Made by a program: the position numbers and the translations under genes | The notes under the pieces: model-generated | The model's input: only the letters and a program-made list of their open reading frames with translations | Told to the model about the DNA's origin: nothing | Databases searched by the model: none | Shown here: piece after piece, positions 5,693-12,400 of the stretch | Layout: every line of letters starts with the position of its first letter | Numbering within the stretch: position 1 is the stretch's first letter | Assembly: GCA_963817615.1 (NCBI GenBank) | Contig: CAWFPH010000003.1 | Location: forward strand, 1,822,718 to 1,886,717 | DNA: 64,000 nucleotides | Direction: 5' to 3' | DNA from: an uncultured Gammaproteobacteria bacterium | GTDB taxonomy: Bacteria > Pseudomonadota > Gammaproteobacteria > Steroidobacterales > Rariloculaceae

Positions 5693-7012
5693 CTAACCGC
5701 TCGCATCGAGCGCTTGCCGCGCGGCCCGACGCCCGCTTTCGAGCGCGCCCGCCACGGTTCCCGATTCACCGTCCACGGCCGCGGCCTCGCCGGCGAAGTA
5801 CAGCGTCTGCTCGAGCGGCGCGGCGAGCAGCCGCCGCGCCGTGCCCGCGCCGCCGACGGTCACGTAGCTGTAAGCCCCGCGCGCGAACGGGTCGCGCTGC
5901 CAATCGTGCGCGTACGCGGCCATCGGTGGAGGAACGCGGCCGCGCCGGAACAGGCTCTCGAGACCGTCGACCGCGAGTCGAATCGAGGCGGCGGCACTGC
6001 GACGCGCGAGGCGAGCGGCGTACGGCCCGGCCGCCCACGCCGTGAGCAACGGCGCACGGACCGGCAGCCCGGTCCAATAAGTCGGGAACGCCGCTTCGGC
6101 CGCATGGAAAAATGCGGCCTCTCGGTAGCGTCCAGCGTCGAGCGTCTCCCAGAAACGCTCGCCGAACCGGAGCACGACCTTCAGGACCGGACCCGCCGCA
6201 AGTCCTCGCAATGCGGCCCGCTTCGCACCGAGATCCGGGACGAACCGCACGCCGCCCGCGGCGCGGCCGCCGCGCGCAAGCACTCCGAGCGGCAGCGCGA
6301 CGATCACCTGCCGGGCGCGTGCTCGCCACTCGCGCCCGGCGCGCACGGCCGCTACGTCGACCTCGCCGCGCCGCCAGGACAGCGTGTGCACGACGGTGTC
6401 CTGCGCGATCTCGACAAGCGGCGGGTCGAGCGCCGCCGCGAGCGCGCCGATGAGCACGCCATAGCCGTCACGCGGGCGAAACGTCGGCGCGTCGACGCCG
6501 CTCGCGCCGCGCCATTCCTCGAGTATCGCGAACGTGCTCGCACGGCTCGCATCGGCGGCGTCGAAGCCCTCGACGAGCAGGCGAGCGAATGTGCGCACGG
6601 CGGGCGACAGATGCTTGCGCGCAGGGCCTTCGAGGAACGCCGCGAGCGGCAAGTCCCGACCCGGCCGCGGAACGGCGGCGAGGCCCTGCTCGAGCGCTCC
6701 GAACAGGCTTTCGGCCGGTTCGAGCCGACTGCCGCGCAGCACGAAGCGCTCGCCGGCCGCGTCGATGAGCACGGTTGGCGAGCGGCCGATCCAATCGAGC
6801 GTCGCGGCCGGGGTCCCATGCACGAACTCCGCACCGAGCTCGATCGGCACTGCAAGATCCGGCTCGCGGCGCGTGAATATTCGTCCGCCCAGCCGGTCCC
6901 GCGCCTCGAGGACGCAAACGGACCGGCCCGCGCGCGCGAGCTCGACGGCCGCCGCGAGTCCCGCCGCGCCTGCGCCGACGACCAGCACTTCGAACCGCCG
7001 CGGGCCGCTCAC
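5693..7012 (-). CDS. FAD-dependent amine oxidase family oxidoreductase
   Basis: The N-terminal dinucleotide-binding motif VLVVGAGAAGLAAAVELARAGRSVCVLEARDRLGGRI and the C-terminal ...LYFAGEA...GTVAGALESG are hallmarks of flavin amine oxidases. The ORF-track start at 7039 is a TTG. The GTG at 7012, preceded by GGGAGGG, is preferred, but the start remains uncertain. Confidence 0.8.
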   Translation of the reverse strand: MSGPRRFEVLVVGAGAAGLAAAVELARAGRSVCVLEARDRLGGRIFTRREPDLAVPIELGAEFVHGTPAATLDWIGRSPTVLIDAAGERFVLRGSRLEPAESLFGALEQGLAAVPRPGRDLPLAAFLEGPARKHLSPAVRTFARLLVEGFDAADASRASTFAILEEWRGASGVDAPTFRPRDGYGVLIGALAAALDPPLVEIAQDTVVHTLSWRRGEVDVAAVRAGREWRARARQVIVALPLGVLARGGRAAGGVRFVPDLGAKRAALRGLAAGPVLKVVLRFGERFWETLDAGRYREAAFFHAAEAAFPTYWTGLPVRAPLLTAWAAGPYAARLARRSAAASIRLAVDGLESLFRRGRVPPPMAAYAHDWQRDPFARGAYSYVTVGGAGTARRLLAAPLEQTLYFAGEAAAVDGESGTVAGALESGRRAARQALDASG

Positions 7013-7038
7013 GCAGGAGCCCTCCCGGGCTGCGCGCA

Positions 7039-7932
7039 ATGGTGACGGCTCGCGTGGGGATCTCCGGCTGGCGTTATCCGCCTTGGCGCGGCGCGTTCTA
7101 TCCCGAAGATCTGCCGCAGCGCAGCGAGCTCGCCTATGCGGCCGAACGCTTCGCCACGATCGAGCTCAACGGCAGCTTTTACTCCTTGCAGCGCCCCGAA
7201 TACTACGAGCGCTGGCGCAACGAAGTGCCGGAGGACTTCGAATTTGCGGTCAAGGGCTCGCGCTACATCACTCACATGCTCAGGCTGCGCGACATCGAGG
7301 TCGCGCTGGCGAACTTCTTCGCGTCCGGAGTGCTCGCTCTCGATCGCAACCTCGGCCCGCTGCTCTGGCAGCTGCCGCCGACGATGCCGTACGAACGCGA
7401 CCTCTTGCGGGCGTTTCTCGCCCTGCTGCCGCGCGATGGCGCCGCGGCGACTGCCCTTGCACGGCGCCACGACGAACGCCTTGCGGGCCGCGCCTATACC
7501 TACGCGGATCCTCGTCGCCCGTTGCGGCATGCGCTCGAGGTTCGACATCCGAGCTTTGCCGCGCAGGAGGTCATCGAGCTGCTGCGCAGCGAAGACGTGG
7601 CACTCGTCGTCGCCGATACGGCCGGCAAATGGCCTCTGCTCGAGGATGTGACGGCGGACTTCGTATACGTTCGACTGCACGGCGACAAGGAACTCTACGT
7701 GAGCGGCTACGCGGAGCCCGCGCTCGATCATTGGGCCGCACGGGTCCGCTCGTGGCTCGCGGGCCGACGGCCGCGCGGCGCGCGCACCGTGGCACCGCCC
7801 GCGGCCGCGCTGCCACGCGACGTGTACGTTTACTTCGACAACGACGTCAAGGTCTACGCACCGTACGACGCCCAACGTTTGGCCGCAAAGCTTCGCTCCC
7901 GCCGCGGCACCCGCGTGGCCGTTGCCCGTTAG
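7039..7932 (+). CDS. DUF72 (YecE-like) family protein
   Basis: The 297-aa ORF begins MVTARVGISGWRYPPWRGAFYPEDLPQRSELAYAAERFATIELNGSFYSL..., the characteristic DUF72 N-terminus. Confidence 0.85.
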   Translation: MVTARVGISGWRYPPWRGAFYPEDLPQRSELAYAAERFATIELNGSFYSLQRPEYYERWRNEVPEDFEFAVKGSRYITHMLRLRDIEVALANFFASGVLALDRNLGPLLWQLPPTMPYERDLLRAFLALLPRDGAAATALARRHDERLAGRAYTYADPRRPLRHALEVRHPSFAAQEVIELLRSEDVALVVADTAGKWPLLEDVTADFVYVRLHGDKELYVSGYAEPALDHWAARVRSWLAGRRPRGARTVAPPAAALPRDVYVYFDNDVKVYAPYDAQRLAAKLRSRRGTRVAVAR

Positions 7933-8082
7933 TGTTTCTCGGTCGAGCCGGGCCCCGTCGTCTTGCGGCCGGATCGTGGTAGCCGTGTGAACCTCCTTGC
8001 GGCTCGAATCCCTTCCGCAACTGCGATCGGCGCGTGCGGCCGCCGCGAAGCGGCCTAGGACCGGGCCCGGGCTACGCACCGT

Positions 8083-9150
8083 CTACGCGGCGTGAGCGGA
8101 CCTCCGGCGCGCGCGTACGGCCGCGGCGATTCGCTCGAGCAGCGCGGCGGACGTCGGCCAATCGATGCAGCCGTCCGTGATGCTCTGACCATAGCGCAAC
8201 GGCACGCCCGACTCGAGCGACTGCCGGCCGCCGACCAGGTGGCTCTCGATCATGAGGCCGACGATGCGCCTGTCGCCTTTTGCGATTTGCGAGGCGACGT
8301 CGTCGACCACGCGCGGCTGGTCATCCGGATTCTTGCCGCTGTTCGCATGGCTCGCATCGATCAGCACGCGCGGCGGTAGGCCCGCGCGCTCGAGCAAGCC
8401 GCACGCGGCGGCGACGTGCTCGGCGCCGTAATTCGGGGCGGCGCCGCCGCGCAGAATCACGTGCCCGTCCGGATTGCCGCGGGTCGCTGCGGCCGCCGCG
8501 CGACCGTCCTTCGTGACCGCGAGAAAATGATGCGGGTGCGCGGCCGCGCGCACGGCGTCGACCGCAATCTGCACGTTACCGTCCGTGCCGTTCTTGAAGC
8601 CGACCGGACACGACAATCCGGACGCCATCTCGCGATGCACTTGGCTTTCGGTGGTGCGCGCACCGATCGCGCCCCATGCGACGAGATCGGCGATGTACTG
8701 CGGCGAGATCGTGTCGAGGTACTCGCAGCCCGCGGGCAGGCCGAGCGCATTGATGTCGCAGAGCAGCGACCGCGCGAGCCTAAGGCCCTTGTCGATGTTG
8801 AACGTGCCGTCGAGATCGGGATCGTTGATAAGACCCTTCCAGCCGACCGTCGTGCGCGGCTTCTCGAAGTACACGCGCATCACGATCTCGAGCGCGTCGC
8901 CGAGCGTATCGCGCAGCGGCCGCAGGCGGCGCGCGTAGTCGATGGCCGCGCTGCGGTCGTGAATGGAGCAGGGTCCGATCACGACGGCGAGCCGATCGTC
9001 GCGCCCCGCCAGGATCGCGTGCAGCGCGCGGCGCGAAGCCGCCACCGTCGCGACCATCGTCGCGTCGCACGGGAACGCGCGCAGGAGCTCGGCCGGCGTC
9101 GCGAGCGGAGCGTAGCTGCGGATTCGTAGGTCGTCGGTATGGGGCGCCAT
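8083..9150 (-). CDS. aroG: 3-deoxy-7-phosphoheptulonate (DAHP) synthase, class I (AroF/G/H type)
   Basis: 355 aa. Motifs: ...VVIGPCSIHD..., ...YFEKPRTTVGWKGLINDPDLDGTFNIDKGL..., ...ESHLVGGRQ... ATG at 9150 with GGAG SD. The feedback specificity (Phe, Tyr or Trp isozyme) cannot be read from the sequence. Confidence 0.95.
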   Translation of the reverse strand: MAPHTDDLRIRSYAPLATPAELLRAFPCDATMVATVAASRRALHAILAGRDDRLAVVIGPCSIHDRSAAIDYARRLRPLRDTLGDALEIVMRVYFEKPRTTVGWKGLINDPDLDGTFNIDKGLRLARSLLCDINALGLPAGCEYLDTISPQYIADLVAWGAIGARTTESQVHREMASGLSCPVGFKNGTDGNVQIAVDAVRAAAHPHHFLAVTKDGRAAAAATRGNPDGHVILRGGAAPNYGAEHVAAACGLLERAGLPPRVLIDASHANSGKNPDDQPRVVDDVASQIAKGDRRIVGLMIESHLVGGRQSLESGVPLRYGQSITDGCIDWPTSAALLERIAAAVRARRRSAHAA

Positions 9151-9192
9151 GTGGGTCTCCGTTTGGCCCGATCGAGCTCGGATTCCGGCGGC

Positions 9193-9223
9193 GAAAAAAA
9201 AGCCGCCGGGGTCACCGGCGGCT
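9193..9223 (-). terminator. Rho-independent terminator within the DAHP-synthase leader (attenuator terminator)
   Basis: On the minus strand: AGCCGCCGG-TGACC-CCGGCGGCT, an 8-9 bp G/C stem, followed by T8. It lies 42 nt upstream of the aroG-type ATG and 24 nt downstream of the leader-ORF stop. Confidence 0.6.
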
Positions 9224-9246
9224 CTTTCGGGATGCTGTCTACTGAC

Positions 9247-9327
9247 TTAGACCGATCGCAATCCTTCCTCCGCCGGGGGCTTCGGAAACGCGTGATACCA
9301 AAAGTAAAAGCGCGCGGTCGCAATCAT
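9247..9327 (-). CDS. Putative aromatic-rich leader peptide (26 codons): MIATARFYFWYHAFPKPPAEEGLRSV
   Basis: Hand-translated base by base: ATG ATT GCG ACC GCG CGC TTT TAC TTT TGG TAT CAC GCG TTT CCG AAG CCC CCG GCG GAG GAA GGA TTG CGA TCG GTC TAA. Eight consecutive codons contain 3 Phe, 2 Tyr and 1 Trp. The ORF sits upstream of a terminator and of an aromatic-pathway gene. It is not in the ORF track because it is too short. Confidence 0.55.
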   Translation of the reverse strand: MIATARFYFWYHAFPKPPAEEGLRSV

Positions 9328-9474
9328 GGCGCGCATTCATATCACACCGACCGCGCCCGCGCCAGCGCCGCCGCCACGCGCGTCTCGCGTCGCTGGCGCA
9401 CGTGGCCCCCGTCGATCGACCGAGCCGAGGCTCGAGGGCGGTGTGGGATAATCGCGGTCTTTTGCGGCCGAGGG

Positions 9475-12400
9475 ATGGCCTGCTCCATGCCGAAGGACTC
9501 AGTATTCGCCGAATTGCCGCTGCCGAGCGACAAGCGCCCGCGCGTGACTTGGACGCACCTGCACGGCAGCGCGCCGGCGCTCGCGATCGCCGAGGCGGCG
9601 CGCCGCCATGCGGGCACCGTCTGCGTGATCGCACCGAACGCGGCCGCGGCAGACCGCATCGAACGAGAGGTCGCGTTCTTCGGCACGCGCGAGCCGCGCC
9701 GCTTTCCCGATTACGAGACCCTGCCCTACGAGCCGATTTCGGCGCCGCAGGATCTGCTGGCGGACCGGCTGCTCACGCTGTACGAGCTCGTGCGCGGCGA
9801 GCCCATGACGCTCGTAGTCGAGGCCGGCGCACTGCTCGGCCGACTGCCGCCGCCGGAATTCGTGGTCGCCCGCTCGCTGGAGCTCGCAGTCGGCGACCGC
9901 TTCGAGCGCGATGCAATGCTCACGCGGCTGACGGACCACGGCTATCTGCGCGTCGAGCAGGTTGCGGAGCCCGGCGAGTTCGCGGTGCGCGGCGCAGTGC
10001 TCGACGTATTTCCGACGGGCGGCAAGCTGCCTATCAGGATCGATCTCTTCGACGACGAGATCGAGACGCTGCGCACGTTCGACCCGCAGACGCAGCTCAC
10101 CGCGGGGCAGACCGATTCGATACGCCTGCTGCCCGCGCGCGAATTCCCGTTCGACGAAGCCGCGATCAAGGAATTCCGCCAGCGCTTTCGCGACGCGTTC
10201 CCGGTGGAGCCGGGCCGCTGCCCGGTCTACCGCACGATCTCCGAGGCGCAGCTGCCGGCCGGCATCGAGTACTACCTGCCGTTGTTTTTCGAGCGCACGG
10301 CGGCACTGTTCGACTATTTGGGCGACGACACGCTGCTCGTGCTCACCGACGGTGCGGGAGCCGCGCTCGACGCCGCATGGGCACTGATTACCGAGCGCTA
10401 CGAGCAACTGCGCGGCGACATCGAGCAGCCGATTCTTGCGCCGGCTAAGGGGTTCTTCTCGCCCGACGTGCTGCGCGCCCGAATCGAGGAGCGGCCGGCG
10501 CTCGCGCTCGAGGCCCACGAGACGCCGACGGCCGACGCCGATGTCGTGAACGCGGGCGTCTCGCATCCGCTGTCGGCCGGCGTCGCGCCGAGCGAGGATC
10601 GGATCGCGCGCTGGGTCGCCGCAGGCACGGAGCGCACGCTGCTCGCCACGTCCTCGCCCGGGCACCGCGAGATGATGCTCGAGCTGTTACGCAACCGCGG
10701 CTACGAGCCCGCGATCGTCGCGACCTGGCCGGAGTTCCTCGAGGGCGACATGCGGCTCGGCGTGGCGGTCGCCGAGCTCGGCGAGGGGCTCCGCATCGCC
10801 GCACGCGAGCTGCGCGTGATCACCTCGACGGAGCTCGGGATGGAGCGGCCGCGGCAGCGGCACCGCCGCCGTCGAGGCCGCGATCCCGAGGCCGTGATCC
10901 GCGAGCTCACGGACCTGCAAGTGGGCGCACCCGTCGTGCACGAGGACTACGGCGTCGGCCGCTATCACGGGCTCAAGACGCTCGACGTCGATGGCCTGCT
11001 CACCGAGTTCCTCGTGCTCGAGTACGCGGGCGGCGACAAGCTCTACGTGCCGGTTCACAGTCTGCATCTCGTGACGCGCTACAGCGGCGCGGCGCCCGAG
11101 GATGCACCGCTGCATCGGCTCGGCTCCGATCAGTGGGCGAAGGCGAAGCGCAAGGCAGCGGACCAGGCGCGCGACGTCGCCGCCGAGCTGCTGAACCTAT
11201 ATGCGCAGCGCGCCGCGCGCGCAGGGCTCGAATTTCACTTCGAAGCGGACGCCTATCGGAACTTCGCGCTCGCATTTCCGTTCGAGGAGACGGAGGACCA
11301 GCAGGCCGCGATCGACCGCGTGCTCGAAGACCTCGCGAGCGGCCAACCGATGGATCGCGTGGTGTGCGGCGACGTCGGCTTCGGTAAGACCGAGGTCGCG
11401 CTGCGTTCGGCATTCGTCGCCGTGCAGGCCGGTTTCCAAGTCGGTGTGCTCGTACCGACTACGCTGCTCGCGGATCAGCACTATCGGACGTTCCAGGACC
11501 GCTTCGCGGATTGGCCGGTGCGAATCGAGCTGCTCTCGCGATTCCGCAGCGGCGCCGCGGTCGCAGCTGCGGTGAAGGGGCTCGGCGACGGCACCGTCGA
11601 CATCGTGATCGGCACGCATCGATTGCTGTCGTCCGACATTCGCTTCAAGCGGCTCGGCCTCGTGATCGTCGACGAGGAGCACCGCTTCGGCGTGAAGCAC
11701 AAGGAGCGGCTCAAGCGGTTGCGCGCGGAGGTCGACATGCTCACGCTCACCGCGACGCCGATCCCGCGCACGCTCAATATGACGCTCGGCGGGCTGCGCG
11801 ATCTGTCGATCATCGCGACGCCGCCGGCCGCCCGGCTGGCGGTGAAGACGTTCGTCGGCGAGTGGAACGACCGGCAAATCCGCGAGGCCGTGCTGCGCGA
11901 GATTCGCCGCGGCGGCCAGGTCTACTTCGTGCACAACCGCGTGGAGAGCATCGAGAGTGCCGCGCGCGGGCTCGAAAAGCTGCTGCCGGAGGCCCACGTG
12001 CGCATAGCGCACGGCCAGATGTCGGAGCGCGAGCTCGAATCCGTGATGCTCGACTTCTATCACCGCCAGTTCAACGTGCTCGTCTGCAGCACGATCATCG
12101 AGAGCGGCATCGACATCCCGACCGCCAACACGATCATCATCGACCGCGCCGACCGGTTGGGATTGGCGCAACTGCACCAGCTGCGCGGCCGAGTGGGCCG
12201 CTCGCACCACCAAGCCTACGCCTACATGCTCGCGCCGCCGCTGCGCGCCCTCACGGCCGATGCCGCCAAACGGCTCGAGGCGATCGCGTCGCTCGAGGAG
12301 CTCGGCTCGGGCTTCACGCTGGCGACGCACGACCTCGAGATCCGCGGTGCGGGGGAGCTGCTCGGCGAAGGGCAAAGCGGTCAAATCCAAGCAATCGGCT

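Follow-up and report, generated by a model that had tools for sequence, protein, structure and literature searches.

The 64,000-nt stretch of DNA from an uncultured gammaproteobacterium analyzed here (hereafter referred to as the window, within which all coordinates are counted) carries on its minus strand a gene for 3-deoxy-7-phosphoheptulonate synthase (DAHP synthase) of the class-I, AroF/G/H type. Directly upstream of this gene lies a short open reading frame (ORF) rich in the codons for Phe, Tyr, and Trp, which is followed by a terminator hairpin and accompanied by segments complementary to the arms of that hairpin. Altogether, these parts constitute a candidate transcription attenuator, and they are arranged in the order of transcription as follows.

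9247 to 9327, minus strand: leader-peptide ORF of 26 codons plus a stop, MIATARFYFWYHAFPKPPAEEGLRSV, with ATG at 9327, TAA at 9249-9247, and no Shine-Dalgarno (SD) sequence.
9286 to 9309, minus strand: putative sensing run, codons 7-14 of the leader, UUU UAC UUU UGG UAU CAC GCG UUU (F Y F W Y H A F), read from the sequence.
9270 to 9276, minus strand: segment 2, the predicted 5' strand of the antiterminator, CCGGCGG, complementary to the 5' arm of the terminator (2:3 duplex, -15.6 kcal/mol).
9229 to 9264, minus strand: interior of the antiterminator as predicted in the stalled-ribosome fold, GG/UGC (9264-9258) with GCA/CC (9235-9229), plus the apical stem GUCUA...UAGAC (9252-9237).
9194 to 9223, minus strand: intrinsic terminator found by folding, with the 5' arm AGCCGCCGG (9223-9215, segment 3), the loop UGACC (9214-9210), the 3' arm CCGGCGGCU (9209-9201, segment 4), and U8 (9201-9194).
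9157 to 9160, minus strand: SD sequence GGAG of the DAHP synthase gene, 6 nt ahead of the ATG at 9150, read from the sequence.
8083 to 9150, minus strand: DAHP synthase gene, 355 amino acids (aa), matching TIGR00034 with 520 bits and E = 2e-156.

The 26-codon ORF with six Phe, Tyr, or Trp codons in eight, reported in the first-pass annotation of this DNA, is present on the minus strand as claimed. Among the 127,954 eight-codon stretches in the six frames of the whole window, exactly one contains six aromatic codons; five are reached in no more than four others, all of which overlap the run in the leader. A single codon in the leader specifies Trp. An in-frame ATG at 9336 would lengthen the leader by three residues to 29 aa. 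Segment 2 starts 8 nt beyond the aromatic run and, as had been noted, lies inside the leader at 9276 to 9270 and is complementary to the 5' arm of the terminator. The GGAG and the ATG at 9150 are likewise where they had been placed, and the assignment of the gene product to class I agrees with TIGR00034. Of the 48 copies of CCGGCGG in the window, four fall within 92 nt (9185-9276); the full switch pattern occurs once, with no second copy found in the window.

In DNA letters, the terminator reads AGCCGCCGG-TGACC-CCGGCGGCT followed by T8, with a GC-rich stem of 8-9 bp. A search for hairpins followed by T-runs recovered its core, GCCGCCGG/CCGGCGGC, at -16.8 kcal/mol ahead of T8, and the minimum free energy fold extended the hairpin to 14 bp. 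The 198-nt region folds better than its shuffled versions (z = -3.4). The terminator claimed earlier thus stands, with its end corrected from 9193 to 9194 and the gap behind the leader stop from 24 to 23 nt. Folding bore out both the hairpin and the competing helix, whereas a simple scan for consensus promoters and terminators (minus strand, 8000-10500) flagged neither a terminator nor a promoter. The scan likely missed the hairpin because A-U and G-U pairs extend the stem into the T-run. Other terminators with A-tracts and U-tracts elsewhere may escape a consensus scan in the same manner.

The same 5' arm can pair with segment 2, and the two helices are mutually exclusive. In the fold of the window RNA with a stalled ribosome, segments 2 and 3 form 7 bp within a long interrupted hairpin, the loop of which comprises 46 nt and includes the leader stop codon; the UAA (9249-9247) sits within the apical stem GUCUA...UAGAC. 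The antiterminator and terminator states amount to -26.7 and -29.7 kcal/mol, respectively. As these energies are close to one another, the outcome would be decided kinetically. A separate observation concerns the window RNA free of ribosomes: GAUUGCGA (9318-9325, leader nt 3-10) can pair with UUGCGAUC (9254-9263, leader nt 65-74, just before the stop), and in the fold of the untranslated RNA containing this pairing, segment 2 is buried in 5' structure and the terminator is allowed. This is a single-sequence prediction with no comparative support.

We scanned genomes with the DAHP synthase protein and obtained 80 loci at 59-75% identity, the best-scoring of which belong to Xanthomonas, Dyella, Rhodanobacter, and Lysobacteraceae; the DNA of the window is therefore probably from a bacterium of their order. 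An ATG-started ORF of 17-30 codons with at least five aromatic residues in eight was found 80-200 nt upstream of the gene in approximately 50 of the 80 loci. The carriers are members of Xanthomonadales, Bradyrhizobium, Mesorhizobium, Devosia, Methylosinus, Burkholderiaceae, Oxalobacteraceae, and Comamonadaceae, so that the arrangement spans alpha-, beta-, and gammaproteobacteria. Leaders of this kind are exemplified by MNANRSFYFWYYGFPMPLAEEGVRSP (Xanthomonas), MITVATSYFWYFSYDSSLAAGGSRSI (Bradyrhizobium), MSAKFYFYFFWHLRPLADREGC (Paraburkholderia), and MSLRAAFYFSYFWFRISGGLEASA (Variovorax). In total, 46 distinct genome-derived leaders were analyzed, 36 of which contain all of Phe, Tyr, and Trp, while about one fifth of the family is devoid of Trp. 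The conservation among relatives on which the first-pass annotation had made its proposal depend therefore extends to the aromatic run, the ORF length, the terminator, and segment 2 in about 50 of the 80 loci from three classes.

A hairpin with a U-tract lies between the leader ORF and the gene in 48 of the 50 leader-bearing loci, and the sequence of its stem, (G)CCGCC[A/G]G ... C[U/C]GGCGG(C), hardly varies among the three proteobacterial classes. Ordinary terminators do not keep the sequence of the stem invariant. The near-invariance can be explained by segment 2, C[U/C]GGCGG, which repeats the 3' arm within the leader and is found at nt 45-62 of nearly every leader. Depending on the clade, segment 2 is read as Pro-Leu-Ala-Glu, x-Gly-Gly, or His-Trp-Arg-Lys, that is, in all of the three reading frames (0, 1, and 2). 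Thus, segment 2 is conserved as RNA rather than as peptide. The spacing of the parts is conserved as well: the last aromatic codon and segment 2 are separated by a median of 9 nt, segment 2 and the stop by 17 nt, and the stop and the terminator arm by 28.5 nt. In each of the 46 leaders, the stop codon is situated between segments 2 and 3. A segment 1 pairing with segment 2, which corresponds to the classical 1:2 helix, was significant in Paraburkholderia/Caballeronia (z of approximately -3.5) and in Bradyrhizobium/Mesorhizobium (z of -2 to -3), where it is CCGCCA-like and occupies codons 2-6. Segment 1 is thus real in some clades. For the window, in which the N-terminal part of the leader shows no better pairing with segment 2 than shuffled sequences (z = +0.49), it was not adopted.

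The strict switch motif was found in 47 of the 80 loci; those lacking it include members of Erwinia, Dickeya, Serratia, Atlantibacter, Pseudescherichia, Methylophilaceae, Rhodocyclaceae, and Chitinimonas. The DAHP synthases of Escherichia coli are controlled by TyrR/TrpR repression and by feedback inhibition. The element is missing from lineages in which the DAHP synthase genes are presumably TyrR/TrpR-repressed as in E. coli (Erwinia, Dickeya, Serratia, and others), and this distribution lends support to an attenuator. Two kinds of divergent leaders were observed aside from the main set. Those of Rhizobium tropici and Neorhizobium (L041 and L044) are variants with fewer, more dispersed aromatic codons (MSFAHAYASRFYSYRCSQRRRACA), in which the switch core is kept by the motif test. 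Two metagenome-assembled genomes of Chloroflexota/Anaerolineae (L026 and L045) possess aromatic-rich mini-ORFs, beginning with MANPVRCFSYFWFSYF and MSRYFSFFSWYGYF, upstream of DAHP synthase, with different hairpins and none of the CCGCCAG/CUGGCGG segments; these leaders either share an origin with the family and have diverged strongly, or arose independently.

We examined the pairing in an alignment of 46 sequences (A1). The terminator helix is 96.1% paired, with 29 double-change cells, and the 2:3 helix is 90.1% paired as opposed to 18-67% when the partner columns are slid. The duplex between segments 2 and 3 ranges from -9 to -18 kcal/mol across loci and is about as stable as the terminator. 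One variable base agrees among segment 2 and both terminator arms in 28 of the 43 scorable leaders (23 with A/U/U and five with G/C/C), and at least two further leaders are compatible through a G-U wobble. The G/C/C leaders are that of the window, which differs in this respect from its Xanthomonadales relatives, and those of four Comamonadaceae-like loci. In one locus (L035), a second position is changed in all of the three segments (CCGCU / AGCGG / AGCGG). The covariation of the 2:3 helix, which draws on one or two outer positions, is real but thin, and we regard the frame-independent conservation of segment 2 together with the invariance of the terminator stem as the stronger comparative arguments. 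When each leader was folded with the ribosomal A site on the middle aromatic codon and with the nascent RNA ending before the 3' arm emerges, segment 3 was captured by segment 2 in 43 of the 46 leaders, including that of the window. An inner helix formed by a run of purines behind segment 2 and a run of pyrimidines ahead of segment 3 gave a mean z of -0.90 against +0.37 for a displaced control, and the interior fold of the antiterminator had a mean z of -0.83. These values are no more than suggestive of an inner antiterminator helix conserved in the family. Altogether, the conservation, the pairing, and the folds of the stalled state support the alternative 2:3 and 3:4 helices postulated in the first-pass annotation.

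Metagenome contigs were scanned for CTGGCGG-N30-60-CCGCCAG-N3-10-CTGGCGGTTTTT, a motif with neither a gene nor a codon criterion. As the matches were chosen by an exact motif, they add no covariation. An aromatic-rich ORF runs through segment 2 in 115 of the 120 matches, and DAHP synthase is immediately downstream (start within about 8-200 nt) in 80 of the 87 matches with at least 500 nt of downstream sequence. The association of the element with DAHP synthase is therefore nearly exclusive. We examined eight exceptions, which comprise two frameshifted DAHP synthase genes, three chance tandem terminators, two loci in which the leader is kept and the downstream ORFs have no assigned identity (L087 and L101), and L105. 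In the last of these (Ga0081455_10000001, match 637-712), the three-segment switch accompanies a weaker aromatic leader, MNKLYVAFAYWFTDSRSGGLFRVF, and the N-terminus encoded by the downstream ORF resembles tryptophanyl-tRNA synthetase, not DAHP synthase. Judging from this resemblance, L105 may represent another class of genes controlled by a switch of this kind. The matches also include a large clade from soil metagenomes (within L082-L200, e.g., L084, L096, L102, and L176), in which the leaders, such as MTRRFFGFFFYFPCLLAEGTG, are rich in Phe and Tyr and contain no Trp; the switch is the same, and DAHP synthase lies downstream.

The 5' end of the leader transcript is suggested by a promoter-like element in the following position.

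9336 to 9344, minus strand: extended -10-like TGATATGAA (TGn + TATGAA), with 8 nt between its end and the leader AUG, read from the sequence.

This element had been pointed out in the first-pass annotation and is indeed present; its role as a promoter is conjectural. A possible weak -35, CTGGCG, lies at 9360-9365 on the minus strand. An SD sequence is missing ahead of the leader AUG both in the window and in most of the relatives. A -10-like TAnnnN, often TGnTAnnnN or TATATG, is located 6-9 nt before the leader ATG in Xanthomonadales, alphaproteobacteria, and Comamonadaceae-like loci (L001-L022, L047, L050, and L060-L079). Bradyrhizobium, Mesorhizobium, and Devosia have a GTGACA -35 upstream of it at a distance of 17 nt, and the abundant clade from soil metagenomes displays TGGCAGAAT, 8 nt, and then the leader ATG. 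The versions in Burkholderia and Oxalobacteraceae carry TATAAA about 35 nt upstream and hence a short 5' untranslated region. Differential RNA-seq of Bradyrhizobium japonicum identified TGnTA as the motif in the promoters of leaderless mRNAs (PMC4842269), and Corynebacterium glutamicum makes leader peptides without a ribosome-binding site (RBS), for instance that of ilvBNC (PMC4046766). From the -10 at 8 nt from the AUG and the lack of an SD sequence, we infer that the leader mRNA is leaderless and that the leader is probably translated from a 5'-terminal AUG. If so, the ORF would comprise 26 codons instead of 29, and the terminated RNA would be approximately 131-134 nt long.

A further copy of the arm sequence follows the terminator.

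9185 to 9193, minus strand: segment 5, CGCCGCCGG, directly after the U-tract and complementary to the 3' arm of the terminator (duplex, -19.2 kcal/mol).

This is the third copy of the arm described earlier at 9192 to 9185, read here as (C)GCCGCCGG at 9193/9192 to 9185. Its ability to pair with the 3' arm is confirmed (z = -3.05 for the duplex), and it is conserved in some clades. In a 4:5 hairpin, the U-tract would become the loop. Equivalents of segment 5 reached p <= 0.05 in 19 of 48 loci, from Xanthomonadales and alphaproteobacteria, and occupy the same position in L001, L003, L008-L022, L047, and L050; none was found in Burkholderiales among the 48 loci compared. Segment 5 and the 3' arm covary in Devosia (CGAGGCGGC with GGCCCCUCG) and in Bradyrhizobium (CCUGGCGGC with GGCCGGCAGG). 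As segment 5 is transcribed after the decision on termination, it cannot affect that decision. We speculate that it may hold the read-through RNA in a conformation with the 2:3 and 4:5 helices.

The element resembles the attenuators of E. coli (trpL-trpEDCBA, pheL-pheA, hisL, leuL, and thrL) in the run of codons for the end product, the terminator before the gene, the segment capable of pairing with its 5' arm, and, presumably, the read-through upon ribosome stalling. It differs from them in preceding DAHP synthase, the common entry step, in mixing three amino acids in the run, in being probably leaderless with no SD sequence, and in having the stop inside the antiterminator loop, not in segment 1/2, with no clear 1:2 helix. 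Closer in terms of the regulated gene is aroR of C. glutamicum, a leader with Phe-Tyr-Phe that attenuates aroF (cg1129) and is relieved by Phe limitation according to PMC11802643, which summarizes Neshat et al. (2014), and Mentz et al. (2013; PMC4046766). The same summary states that Tyr supply was without effect (PMC11802643). As far as the published descriptions allow the comparison, aroR shares with the window a DAHP synthase gene directly preceded by a leader peptide with aromatic residues; it differs in belonging to Actinobacteria and in the residues reported in those descriptions, namely three aromatic ones and no Trp. In Acholeplasma, uORFC-13-1 is a predicted upstream ORF with an intrinsic terminator immediately before aroF, the gene of 3-deoxy-7-phosphoheptulonate synthase, and was proposed to sense Phe (Brewer et al., 2021; PMC8632094). 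This system differs from the element in its occurrence (24 examples in Acholeplasma and environmental sequences only), its RBS, its U-run coding for at least one Phe, and its AT-rich sequence with none of the CUGGCGG/CCGCCAG segments. Finally, trpL of Sinorhizobium meliloti (rnTrpL/peTrpL) is comparable as a ribosome-dependent attenuator of an aromatic-pathway gene in an alphaproteobacterium, and both its terminated leader RNA and its peptide are described as stable products (PMC7298713, PMC7968998). It senses Trp only and precedes trpE(G), and functions in trans were demonstrated, which are purely hypothetical for the element in the window.

No family in the catalogues searched corresponds to the element. 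Nothing in the whole window reached the gathering threshold of any Rfam 15 model, including Trp_, Phe_, His_, Leu_, and Thr_leader, and in a local search at E <= 10 there were only sub-threshold small RNA models on the terminator hairpin, with sroD as the best (21.9 bits against a threshold of 50). Six representative leaders searched against NCBIfam and Pfam matched no family at E <= 10. The comparison with catalogues suggested in the first-pass annotation therefore yielded no matching family in Rfam, Pfam, or NCBIfam. In an exact look-up against a collection of 15 billion proteins, only the Bradyrhizobium leader peptide was found, and there it is unnamed or "hypothetical". The searchable full-text literature, queried with the peptide strings as well, contained no description of a DAHP synthase attenuator in proteobacteria, though a prior account is possible, and none of the transcriptional control of DAHP synthase in Xanthomonadales, the Burkholderia group, or rhizobia. 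The view that attenuation of DAHP synthase is poorly documented thus holds for proteobacteria and not in general, as it has been shown in C. glutamicum and predicted in Acholeplasma.

Considering these data together, we regard it as likely, with a probability of about 85%, that expression of the DAHP synthase gene is governed by ribosome-mediated transcription attenuation of the trp/phe/his type. Transcription would start at or beside the leader AUG at 9327, and a ribosome would load on the leaderless 5' end. Under a shortage of Phe-, Tyr-, or Trp-tRNA, the ribosome would stall in codons 7-14 and leave segment 2 (9276-9270) free; segment 2 would capture segment 3 once made, forming the long interrupted antiterminator hairpin, and RNA polymerase would read through into the DAHP synthase gene. 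When the aromatic aminoacyl-tRNAs are plentiful, the ribosome would pass segment 2 and reach the stop inside the antiterminator loop. On steric grounds, the terminating ribosome is expected to melt the inner helix and to sit between the strands of the outer helix, and the antiterminator would be blocked. With segments 3 and 4 then forming the terminator hairpin, RNA polymerase would release a transcript of about 131-134 nt at U8.

Several points weigh against this reading. CCGGCGG is common by chance in a window of 67% GC (48 copies against about 42 expected), and the window alone therefore gives weak support for the antiterminator. Once the 3' arm is present, the terminator of the window is 3 kcal/mol more stable than the antiterminator, and the 1:2 anti-antiterminator of the window is not significant against shuffles (z = +0.49). 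The core of the 2:3 helix, GGCGG:CCGCC (five pairs), is invariant and gives no covariation signal, approximately nine of the 43 leaders are mismatched at the variable base, and the association at that base is modest (Fisher p = 0.016, uncorrected for phylogeny). The -10 of the window (TATGAA) does not end in T as the consensus does, and the accompanying -35 is a poor one. In the first-pass annotation, a ribosome at the stop codon was supposed to cover segment 2, which is not the case in the window, as segment 2 ends about 2-4 nt behind the trailing edge of such a ribosome. Termination under replete conditions would thus depend on the steric and kinetic argument given above. Moreover, with a single Trp codon in the run and by analogy with C. 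glutamicum, in which Tyr has no effect, the sensing of three amino acids is not assured.

Four other explanations were weighed, one of which is compatible with attenuation. This one supposes that the leader RNA of about 131 nt or the 26-aa peptide has an additional function in trans, comparable to rnTrpL/peTrpL. The reports on Sinorhizobium provide a precedent in an alphaproteobacterium (PMC7298713, PMC7968998), and the leader RNA is conserved unusually strongly, with an invariant stem and a fifth segment. There is no indication of a target, however, and the mutual complementarity of segments 2, 3, 4, and 5 suffices to explain the conservation; an extra function in trans is therefore unlikely in our opinion.

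The same switch could instead be operated by the nascent peptide, provided that the aromatic run and P-x-P-x-A-E arrest the ribosome in response to free aromatic amino acids or another small molecule rather than to tRNA charging, as in TnaC, whose arrest responds to free Trp. Such a sensor would fit the leader being better conserved than most, with a C-terminal ...P.P.AE..G.RS tail in gamma- and alphaproteobacteria, and the prolines following the aromatic run in many members. Nevertheless, the conservation of the tail is explained at the RNA level, given that segment 2 is read as PLAE, xGG, or HWRK depending on the clade, and the order of Phe, Tyr, and Trp shuffles freely among relatives, as is usual in sensors that count codons but not in specific arrest peptides. 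In addition, arrest by an abundant amino acid would lead to read-through at high supply, the wrong sign for a biosynthetic gene. We consider a peptide sensor highly improbable.

An equally poor candidate is a switch made of RNA alone, in which the mini-ORF is untranslated and the U-rich and GC-rich segments act on the terminator as a riboswitch or a protein-binding leader. The absence of an SD sequence before the leader AUG and the strong sequence conservation of several RNA segments speak for it, while the promoter geometry, being that of a leaderless mRNA, explains the former. In all 46 genome-derived leaders and in 115 of the 120 metagenome matches, an upstream AUG opens the frame in which the aromatic triplets are read, and the stop codon of this frame invariably lies between segments 2 and 3. 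Within the run, codons are exchanged for synonymous ones (UAU/UAC, UUU/UUC) or for other aromatic codons, and no riboswitch or leader model of Rfam matches. The last explanation, an ordinary terminator or stabilizing hairpin in a divergent intergenic region next to a fortuitous short ORF, could appeal to the frequency of CCGGCGG and to the silence of the simple terminator scan, but is effectively refuted by the comparative data, as the arrangement is kept in three classes of proteobacteria as well as in 115 of 120 matches found by motif only, the aromatic run is unique in the window, and a constitutive terminator would, if there were no mechanism for read-through, cut an essential biosynthetic gene off from its promoter, which would make no sense.

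With regard to the surroundings of the attenuator, the GC contents of the DAHP synthase gene by codon position (0.71/0.52/0.87) are those of a typical coding frame. The divergent neighbor on the plus strand is mfd, with a start near 9487. It is kept in none of the 80 orthologous loci and is therefore not part of the element. Directly 3' of the DAHP synthase gene, two ORFs follow on the minus strand (5693-8079) with no terminator between. The first, a 356-aa ORF at 7009-8079, has no match in Pfam or NCBIfam and an atypical GC content by codon position (0.79/0.52/0.73), and the second, a flavin amine oxidoreductase gene at 5693-7039, overlaps this candidate ORF by about 30 nt. The three may form one operon under the attenuator.

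In kind, the element is apparently an uncatalogued member of a well-known class of regulators, and the principle is unchanged. Some of its features are uncommon, namely the probable leaderless start, the mixed run for three amino acids, the stop inside the antiterminator loop, and the optional fifth segment. A more comprehensive view would join these features into an uncatalogued and widespread family of alpha-, beta-, and gammaproteobacteria and soil bacteria, in which a leaderless mini-ORF integrates the charging of tRNA-Phe, tRNA-Tyr, and tRNA-Trp, up to five mutually complementary copies of CCGCCAG/CUGGCGG take part, the post-terminator segment locks the read-through state, and the leader RNA or peptide might act in trans. 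We put this view forward tentatively, giving it somewhat less than an even chance of being correct as a whole.

For annotation, the element is recognizable and would be a candidate for a family in both Rfam and NCBIfam with well over a hundred members. It would also be an obvious target for deregulating the production of aromatic compounds in metabolic engineering and, if our reading is true, a natural leaderless attenuator for research on the coupling of transcription and translation. DAHP synthase sets the flow of carbon into the shikimate pathway. Should the attenuator operate as proposed, plant-associated and soil bacteria would use one compact cis-acting sensor at this step in place of repressors.

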